Made by a program: the position numbers and the translations under genes. From a virus (Duplodnaviria; Caudoviricetes), in IMG/VR virus record IMGVR_UViG_3300048837_000495, positions 1 through 59,151 of that record: a DNA stretch of 59,151 nucleotides. The stretch is one strand, 5' to 3'. The notes below the pieces were generated by a model, which saw nothing but the letters and a program-made list of their open reading frames with translations, was not told the DNA's origin and did no database searches. This document shows positions 37,737 to 39,150 of the stretch, one piece after another. Positions within the stretch are counted from its first letter, which is position 1. Every line of letters begins with the position of its first letter.

Positions 37737-38044
37737 GAGCTACGGTCCAAACACTCGACCATGGCGACGGCAACCGCCGCGAGTTGAATGAGTTCCGTGC
37801 GGTAGTTTTCCCAGTTCCCGGTTGACTCGTAGCCGGAGAAGTGCGCCTCGCAGACGGCTTTGCAAACCTCGCCGAACTCTTCCCCGAGGATAGACAACCA
37901 TTCGGGCGGGGTGTGGTTCTGCTCACCCCATTTCGCATCTTGACGCCGGCGTTCTTCCTGCACTTCGGAGAGAACGGAGTTGGTTTCTTTTACGGCAAGT
38001 AACCGGCCTACCATCTCTTGCAATCCTGGTGTTGGGCATCTCAT
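37724..38044 (-). CDS. MazG-like NTP pyrophosphohydrolase
   Basis: ERRRQDAKWG, LGEEFGEV, ELIQLAAVAVA. Confidence 0.65.
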   Translation of the reverse strand: MRCPTPGLQEMVGRLLAVKETNSVLSEVQEERRRQDAKWGEQNHTPPEWLSILGEEFGEVCKAVCEAHFSGYESTGNWENYRTELIQLAAVAVAMVECLDRSSHST

Positions 38045-39150
38045 GATTTCGCCTCCATTACTGTTTTGATAAATTCCGCCGCTTGCGGGGCGACGATAGC
38101 GTTACCATAGCCGCGTAGTCGTCCCACTCTTTGGGATACCCCATGAGCCAGCGTGAATGTGCCGGGTTCAACTGGCCTCCACTTTCCATCCCGGCAGAAG
38201 AGCCAATCAGCATCTCGCCAGAAGCCGTTAGTCGGCATGGGGTGGTCATCTCCGCAAGCCCCCTGATTATCCCGCCCATCAGCGCCTCGTCTTTCCTGTC
38301 GCCGCCCCGGCTCGTCTGTCCCCCCGCCATTGCGTTCGGAGTCGGCCATCCCGAAAGTGCCGCTTGAGGTGGCAACGCGCTCGAATCCGCTTGATTCGGT
38401 CCGCCGTGCGTCCCATCCGTCGCTCGTGGAGTTCCCCAACCGGCCAACGTTGCCACATCTTCTATCCGGCTCTCCTTCGCCGCTAATTGCGGGTTTTCTT
38501 CGCGGCTCTTGCATTTCCCATGAGCGCTCTGCTCCCGCGGTGTTGGCCAACCCGCCACCTTCGCACTCCTCACCAAGCAGGCGCAACCGTGCTTCGTTCC
38601 GTGGATAGCTTTCTGTGTCCTGCTTCTGCCCGTTGTGTCGTGGACTTGTGGAGTCGGCCACCCAGTAAGCTCTGTCTCTAATGTGCGGCGCACCGAGGCT
38701 CGCAGCCGGGAACGGGACAACCCCGAAGGCGTAACCCAAGGCTTCCAGGTCAGCTTGTACAAGGTTGAACCAGACGTTCGTAGCCTTGCTTGCAACCTGC
38801 TCTCCAAAAACGATTGCAGGACGGCACTGCTGGATGAGCCAATACCAGGACGGCCAGAGGTGCCGCTCGTCAGCAAACCCTTTTCCTTTGCCTGCCGCGC
38901 TGAAAGGTTGGCATGGGCACGATCCGGTCCATACAGGTCGGTCGTCTGGCCGCCCGGCAAGTCGCAATGCGTAAGACCATCCGCCGATGCCGGCGAAGAA
39001 GTGGCATTGAGAATATCCTCTGAGATCATTTGGAGTAACATCCTCGATCGAGCGTCCATCGACATCTCCCGGAGCAATCAGTCCTGCTTTTATTAACTCG
39101 CGCAACCACTGCGCGGCGAACGGATCAATTTCGTTATAATAGGCACTCAC
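38041..39150 (-). CDS. DNA cytosine-C5 methyltransferase, catalytic (alpha-like) chain
   Basis: Motif [48 protein letters not shown] start 39150 with GGAGG SD. Confidence 0.9.
38058..39077 (-). CDS. Overlapping alternative-frame MTase partner (beta-like) carrying motif IX and W[PG]TP modules
   Basis: 339 codons open inside the MTase gene; [16 protein letters not shown] resembles C5-MTase motif IX, which the main frame lacks; start uncertain. Confidence 0.7.

Follow-up and report, generated by a model that had tools for sequence, protein, structure and literature searches.

A phage locus likely to encode a two-polypeptide DNA (cytosine-5) methyltransferase in two overlapping frames, with a modular array in the nested chain

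Introduction

Two-polypeptide DNA (cytosine-5) (C5) methyltransferases are known from M.EcoHK31I of Escherichia coli, which recognizes YGGCCR (Lee, Kam and Shaw 1995, as described in the relevant passages of PMC2836561 and PMC3404938). According to these passages, the coding sequence of its beta chain lies entirely within the alpha gene and is read in a different frame; motifs I-VIII, motif X and the target-recognition domain (TRD) are on alpha, and motif IX is on beta. M.AquI (CYCGRG) is a further two-subunit C5 methyltransferase, the small subunit of which carries motifs IX and X, as summarized in a passage of PMC3404938. In the multispecific C5 methyltransferases of the Bacillus phages SPR, phi3T, rho11s and H2, tandem TRDs are located on a single chain, as outlined in part of PMC8936443. 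Here, a two-frame cytosine methylase gene on the minus strand of a phage record of 59,151 bases (IMGVR_UViG_3300048837_000495, positions 1 to 59,151, estimated to be about 97% complete), the whole of which is termed the window, was analyzed in relation to these systems. A preliminary description of the gene, made from the DNA letters, had cited M.EcoHK31I and the Bacillus phage enzymes as precedents, and the passages above describe both as it stated. Literature searches turned up M.EcoHK31I only, and no account of this phage family or of its modules. We hold with good confidence that the locus encodes an orphan phage C5 methyltransferase of two polypeptides, both chains being read from the same DNA in two frames as in M.EcoHK31I, except that a TRD-like array is located in beta. 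Beta probably chooses which DNA sequences are methylated.

The alpha chain

The preliminary description had read motifs I, IV, VI, VIII and X in the main frame, no motif IX, and a low-complexity interval between VIII and X, all of which was found again. FAGIGG and GNAI vary little or not at all across 33 relatives and are read as motif I (F-x-G-x-G-G) and motif X (G-N-x-V/I). PCQPFS, GEQV and RER/RDR represent motifs IV (Pro-Cys), VI (Glu) and VIII (Arg-x-Arg); when the alpha profile was aligned with residues 71-177 of M.HhaI (E = 8e-14), these three paired with M.HhaI's own motifs. The interval at residues 166-304 consists to 63% of G, R, E, D, S and T, compared with 33% in the core. Among family models, PF00145 of Pfam scored 54.9 bits against alpha (cut-off 22), covering the motif IV-VIII part only (profile positions 66-180 of 324), the dcm model of NCBIfam scored 38.1, below its cut-off of 100.65, and phrog_363 of PHROG matched the full-length chain (7.7e-89). 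In the predicted fold of alpha alone, the Rossmann-type core (residues 1-170) and the last helix are confident, and residues 172-315 are unstructured. This model matched M.HhaI over 169 of 327 columns (E = 3.7e-7), in the large domain only. No small domain (TRD plus motif IX) was found within the alpha chain, the interval being unstructured in the model and not conserved in sequence. Judged from its motifs and predicted fold, alpha is the large domain of a DNA (cytosine-5) methyltransferase without the small domain.

The nested beta frame

The +1 frame of the same strand is open for 339 codons (39077-38058) and contains four W[PG]TP modules followed by [16 protein letters not shown], as was originally reported and as re-reading of the sequence confirmed. 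Its product, termed beta, is nearly as long as alpha and matches phrog_1008 (1.6e-35) and phrog_31772 (4.5e-33), both of which PHROG labels as DNA methyltransferase; the ESM Atlas returned unnamed viral clusters only. Chance openness was assessed by synonymous shuffling of alpha. In the window, none of 200 shuffles reached 339 open +1 codons (mean 159, maximum 338), and at 81 loci, comprising 80 relatives from IMG/VR and the window, the observed open length was reached in 51 of 16200 shuffles, although the compared sequences are interrelated and such counts overstate their independence. Base composition therefore helps to keep the +1 frame open, but does not explain it.

Furthermore, beta possesses a candidate start of its own. 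Of 77 distinct relatives, 75 have an ATG at the same alignment position, inside the conserved SIEDV codons of alpha (Asp-Val), and the other two have ACG there. The Asp codon supplying it is GAT in 75 of the 77, whereas in the rest of alpha the share of GAT is 39%; upstream, 70 of the 77 have a Shine-Dalgarno-like 4-mer. The 16-residue element following the modules is likewise invariant or nearly so in the relatives.

Selection on both frames

In 79 of the 81 loci, the open stretch of the +1 frame covered 70% of alpha or more, the median for the +2 frame being 14%. The expectation of the preliminary description that both frames stay open in homologs was thereby borne out, and interruption of the alternative frame proved rare rather than common (2 of 81). 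All eight named phages, the hosts of which belong to seven genera (Xanthomonas, Salmonella, Rhodobacter, Klebsiella, Tunturiibacter, Vibrio and Escherichia), show the same hallmarks and an open +1 frame, as do 18 of 18 further loci. With beta as query, tblastn gave matches in 234 phage records, co-located with those of alpha; in 165 of these records the match covers 80% or more of the beta length. Among predicted proteins, 6963 of the 8000 scored matched beta at E<=1e-3, and the best 120 are unnamed and have no Pfam domain.

Substitution patterns within the overlap reflect both frames. Among 11 sequences sharing less than 70% alpha identity, identical alpha residues were encoded by the same codon at a frequency of 0.61-0.64 inside the overlap, compared with 0.47 before beta, 0.40 after it and 0.32-0.41 expected from codon usage; the rise spans alpha codon 81 to approximately codon 340. 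At alpha third positions, divergence was 0.39 and 0.34 within the overlap, lower than the 0.51 and 0.61 found outside. For the module region, 123 distinct module DNAs from 67 loci were compared in 762 pairs picked by DNA identity alone. Divergence at beta codon positions 1, 2 and 3 was 0.102, 0.053 and 0.379, respectively, and amino-acid identity was 0.887 in beta versus 0.590 in alpha. Such a pattern is the mark of beta coding; alpha coding would produce the opposite. Conservation of the second frame, its own start and purifying selection upon it are thus all consistent with the earlier proposal, and by these sequence measures beta is a real gene.

Alpha is constrained in a different manner through the same region. 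Its frame is stop-free in 56 of 56 distinct module regions (22 loci were skipped, their anchors not being found); under beta-synonymous shuffles, a median probability of 0.09 was obtained for the alpha frame staying open. Since the alpha frame is kept open through the modules while the linker is not conserved, alpha must be kept as a single chain, with the linker free in sequence. Beyond the modules, both products of the C-terminal overlap are conserved.

The module array

Modules were parsed in 118 of 197 distinct betas, on which the statistics rest; the other 79 did not fit the anchors. The parsed proteins contain a total of 448 modules, which group into 108 clusters; each protein has 1-7 of them, with both frames open, and module number therefore varies among homologs as had been anticipated. 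There are 112 distinct architectures among the 118 betas, and where backbones are at least 90% identical only 12 of 97 pairs share an architecture, in keeping with the suggestion that cassettes are gained and lost while both frames stay open. A module type was repeated within one protein in 1 of 118 betas, compared with 21.4 +/- 3.9 when labels were shuffled, and none of 2000 shuffles was that low. Common types recur at different ordinal positions, while a few (types 10, 13, 16 and 17) are mostly last. In the window the order is types 0, 81, 3 and 13, and the four anchors are imperfect direct repeats of 19-20 nucleotides spaced in multiples of three bases. On this comparison of sequences the modules are shuffled cassettes, and the scarcity of repeated types fits units with separate, non-redundant roles.

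Predicted complex of alpha and beta

Models of alpha with beta gave interface scores (ipSAE) of 0.92, 0.91 and 0.91, versus 0.00 for the best of three controls; of 157 solved complexes, 116 attained the mark used for this score, as did 2 of 215 mismatched pairs. At least 70% of contacts are common to the runs, and the predicted local distance difference test (pLDDT) of the partner is 59-61. The predicted interface joins beta residues 50-142, 165-171 and 273-321 to alpha residues 10-41, 99-166 and 305-367. Its confident portion consists of the beta N-part (50-142) and C-part (273-321), the motif IX-like element included, on the motif VIII region of alpha and the C-terminal segment around motif X. 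In these models the C-part packs on the motif X and VIII regions of alpha, where its 16-residue element docks. Beta alone is predicted poorly (pLDDT 52.3, predicted template modelling score 0.22). The score may be helped in part by likeness to solved single-chain C5 methyltransferases. Binding of alpha and beta is nevertheless supported at the level of prediction, which favors the two-chain enzyme that had been suggested.

Distant relatives and database annotation

Short alphas occur in Mycobacterium phage Zerg, Microbacterium phage vB_MoxS-R1 and Pseudomonas phage PS-1, each with a nested +1 open reading frame (ORF) containing one W-x-T-P-like unit and a motif IX-like element. In Paenibacillus phage Jacopo (L108, MH454079.1), frames 949-2004 and 1151-1855 are both annotated as DNA cytosine methyltransferase, and the nested ORF proved to be a homolog of beta (hhalign 97.7%, E = 1.4e-12, 213 columns). 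Passages of its genome paper, PMC6070908, tabulate two cytosine-methyltransferase genes without comment, and the words "nested" and "embedded" are absent from these passages. In Gordonia phage Gmala1 (L110, NC_028972.1; 961-1849), the ORF with motifs I-VIII ends at 1515, and an overlapping +1 ORF (1274-1849) combines, in a single frame, a module with a motif IX-like element and GNSV (motif X). Annotation in the record is limited to 979-1518 and 1643-1852.

A further arrangement is represented by P0021, a protein of 633 amino acids from a single-member cluster. Here, an alpha-type chain with an alpha-type low-complexity linker has about eight W-P-T-P modules of its own, which are read in the alpha frame and lie between the EPG..PL segment and motif X. 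A search of viral contigs for the DNA of P0021 returned other family members only. Fused forms were also sought among longer proteins; the 21 matches are nearly all single-member with unrelated domains and, P0021 excepted, are probable read-through calls. Judging from sequence order, the distant relatives appear to place the module-plus-IX unit at the position of TRD and motif IX in ordinary enzymes, an identity that no profile search confirmed. Two further IMG/VR loci (L097 and L106) have an alpha frame that terminates earlier than the beta frame and in which no motif X was found by pattern, and another (L105) has a CRDGK-like motif in the beta frame. Frame switching or additional layout variants may account for these loci.

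Annotation of the family is inconsistent. Of the eight named phages compared, six have alpha only, one the beta frame only and one both: in Tunturiibacter phage Tunturi_1 (L086) the beta frame alone (692-1663) is annotated, as "DNA methyltransferase", and in Xanthomonas phage PhiXhv-5 (L081) both frames are (1419-2438 and 1501-2433). Many phage "cytosine methylases" would consequently be recorded without their putative specificity subunit.

Gene organization

The coordinates of the features are collected in Table 1. The gene stands at the head of replication and nucleotide-metabolism genes (ThyX, primase/helicase, helicase, exonucleases and DNA polymerase). Alpha overlaps both neighboring ORFs: GTGA combines its GTG with the upstream stop codon, and ATGA combines the downstream ATG with the stop codon of alpha. 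No restriction endonuclease gene was recognised near the methylase gene.

As for the neighbors, the downstream ORF matches phrog_2831, function unknown, and the upstream ORF matches phrog_474 and phrog_1167, labelled "phosphofructokinase", probably a misnomer. On the opposite strand, the gene of a 1327-residue protein that closes the virion gene block converges on the methylase operon; the C-terminal part of this protein matches DarB-like antirestriction (phrog_10089, 2e-49), and the protein also has a HEGAHAL zinc-protease-like motif. A 190-residue ORF has no PHROG family and contains three tandem EDVADPxFVS-like units.

Table 1. Features of the two-frame methylase gene and neighboring genes in the window (beta residues read in the +1 frame).
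Feature	Position	Strand	Description
Alpha coding sequence	38041..39150	-	GTG start at 39150, 369 amino acids, stop 38043-38041; putative catalytic chain with motifs I, IV, VI, VIII and X
Alpha FAGIGG	38997-38980	-	
Alpha PCQPFS	38916-38899	-	
Alpha FGEQV	38808-38794	-	
Alpha RDR	38679-38671	-	
Alpha GNAI	38106-38095	-	
Alpha linker, residues 166-304	38239..38655	-	139 amino acids, low-complexity, no modelled secondary structure; sequence not conserved, frame kept open
Beta coding sequence, +1 frame	38058..39059	-	Stop TAA 38060-38058; start ATG 39041-39039 or ATG 39059-39057; 327 or 333 amino acids
Beta leader	38913..39041	-	About 44 amino acids; open in relatives; alpha synonymous sites at baseline; low-confidence model
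Beta N-part (ANLSARQ...[10 protein letters not shown]...RRT...)	38661..38912	-	Co-encoded with alpha motifs IV-VIII; doubly constrained; predicted packing on alpha
Beta module 1	38550..38660	-	37 amino acids, WPTP, type 0, in 39/118 parsed betas
Beta module 2	38439..38549	-	37 amino acids, WPTP, rare type 81, in 1 protein
Beta module 3	38349..38438	-	30 amino acids, WGTP, type 3, in 29/118 parsed betas
Beta module 4	38235..38348	-	38 amino acids, WPTP, type 13, in 8 betas, mostly last module
Beta C-part	38061..38234	-	Contains the motif IX-like [16 protein letters not shown] (38171-38124); the same DNA encodes the conserved pre-X segment of alpha
Downstream ORF	37724-38044	-	106 amino acids
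Upstream ORF	39147-39701	-	184 amino acids
DarB-like protein gene	33753-37736	+	1327 amino acids
ORF with tandem units	39728-40300	-	190 amino acids

Discussion

The two chains may be pictured as complementary parts of one enzyme. Alpha would provide the catalytic large domain, consisting of motifs I-VIII, a disordered linker and a conserved segment ending in motif X. Beta, started from the conserved ATG, would begin with a weakly constrained leader, followed by an N-part that binds alpha, the W-x-T-P array and a C-part, the motif IX-like helix of which would dock beside motif X of alpha. Together with the C-terminal segment of alpha, beta most likely forms a small DNA-recognising domain in which the modules are target-recognition cassettes. 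Beta would be needed for activity and the modules would set the target sequence or sequences; multispecificity and a role in anti-restriction, both put forward in the preliminary description, would be in line with this arrangement.

Several observations weigh against this interpretation. That beta is translated we infer from its sequence. In the window, the homologue of the conserved ATG (39041-39039) has a poor Shine-Dalgarno site, whereas the alternative ATG (39059-39057) has GGGAG 6 nucleotides upstream, and the start of beta is therefore ambiguous between the two. Two of the IMG/VR loci (L050 and L077) have one stop each inside a beta module, with the beta frame otherwise intact, which could be decay, sequencing error or tolerated truncation. 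Searches of Pfam and NCBIfam with beta gave no family, a profile search of the PDB gave at best a peptidase matched via the repeated W motif (E = 0.031), a PDB search with the C-terminal 60 amino acids gave no methyltransferase, and Pfam gave nothing relevant for the nested ORFs of five distant phages. As profile searching tied beta neither to an established family nor to a solved structure, "motif IX" and "TRD" serve here as labels derived from position and motif likeness; the earlier assignment of motif IX to the alternative frame stands on those two grounds, and profile searching did not confirm it. Most of the module array lies outside the confident interface, only the first two anchors touching alpha. 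Moreover, the scarcity of repeated module types could also reflect recombinational deletion between direct repeats, or types that are specific to a position.

The manner in which the array would operate is a more tentative matter. Each module type may direct the shared alpha to a different DNA sequence, which would give up to seven specificities per 1.1-kb gene, with recombination at the conserved W-P-T-P anchors of about 20 nucleotides proceeding in multiples of three bases so that both frames survive; we regard this as quite possible, a little short of an even chance. A possibility to which we give somewhat less than that is an array forming one composite surface for DNA binding or scaffolding, with single or low specificity and beta still a subunit of the enzyme. 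The position-bound types found mostly last, the contact of only two anchors with alpha in the model and the existence of one-module relatives are all compatible with a single surface. Module sets that differ between near-identical backbones, an almost complete lack of repeated types and the same types at different ordinal positions are three features with which independent units agree better than such a surface does.

The remaining explanations place beta outside a two-chain enzyme or deny it altogether. Beta might be a real protein with its own function, for example a regulator or an anti-defence factor, nested for compactness or co-expression; its failure to match any known family and the low confidence of its leader and modules in the model would suit such a role. 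We consider this unlikely, because beta accompanies alpha in all family members that were examined, alpha is without a small domain, the predicted interface is tight compared with all controls, the motif IX-like element of Gmala1 precedes motif X in one frame, and P0021 carries modules in the alpha frame itself. Two programmed frameshifts, joining alpha I-VIII, the beta modules with IX, and alpha X into a single polypeptide, would restore the canonical order of I-VIII, TRD, IX and X. This is very improbable: constraint on the beta frame begins about 80 codons upstream of motif VIII, beta has a conserved ATG with a Shine-Dalgarno site, both products of the C-terminal overlap are conserved, and such a path would not need the alpha frame open through the modules, yet it is kept open. 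The least credible reading, to which we give hardly any weight, is that the +1 frame is a shadow ORF, its openness being due to composition and its conservation solely to that of alpha. Synonymous shuffles of genes of 55-65% guanine plus cytosine do give a mean of about 100-200 open codons, and the +1 frame upstream of beta shows "shadow" conservation of 0.71-0.76. However, substitutions in the modules follow beta coding, and the higher amino-acid identity of beta than of alpha in that region contradicts a shadow.

If beta is the recognition subunit of a two-chain methyltransferase, the locus would be among the longest and most widespread functional same-strand overlaps in phages, with about 1 kb in which both frames are selected. 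The cassette array, if real, would constitute a natural compact system for changing or multiplying 5-methylcytosine specificity, with a bearing on phage escape from restriction, on the reading of methylomes and on the engineering of targeted methyltransferases from naturally split enzymes. Should the cassettes be independent, phages could quickly retarget their protection against host restriction enzymes.

Among known systems, M.EcoHK31I belongs to a restriction-modification system, unlike the phage gene, which is an orphan in a phage replication module. Within the scope of the passages introduced above, both have a nested beta ORF in another frame and motifs I-VIII and X in alpha. They differ in that M.EcoHK31I has the TRD in alpha and only motif IX in beta, whereas the phage gene has TRD-like modules in beta and a disordered passenger between VIII and X of alpha. 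The Bacillus phage enzymes, likened here by description, also have short tandem recognition units in a variable region, in sets that differ between phages; however, they are one chain in one frame, while the array of the phage gene is in a separate overlapping gene, and the per-module specificity demonstrated for them would apply to the phage gene by analogy. M.AquI shares with the phage gene a natural split within the variable region, although its motif X is described as part of the small subunit, whereas in the phage gene motif X (GNAI) is in alpha and beta ends before it; Gordonia phage Gmala1 looks like the M.AquI kind of split. The nested two-chain layout itself is therefore already known, and what is new in comparison with M.EcoHK31I is the TRD-like array in the nested beta.

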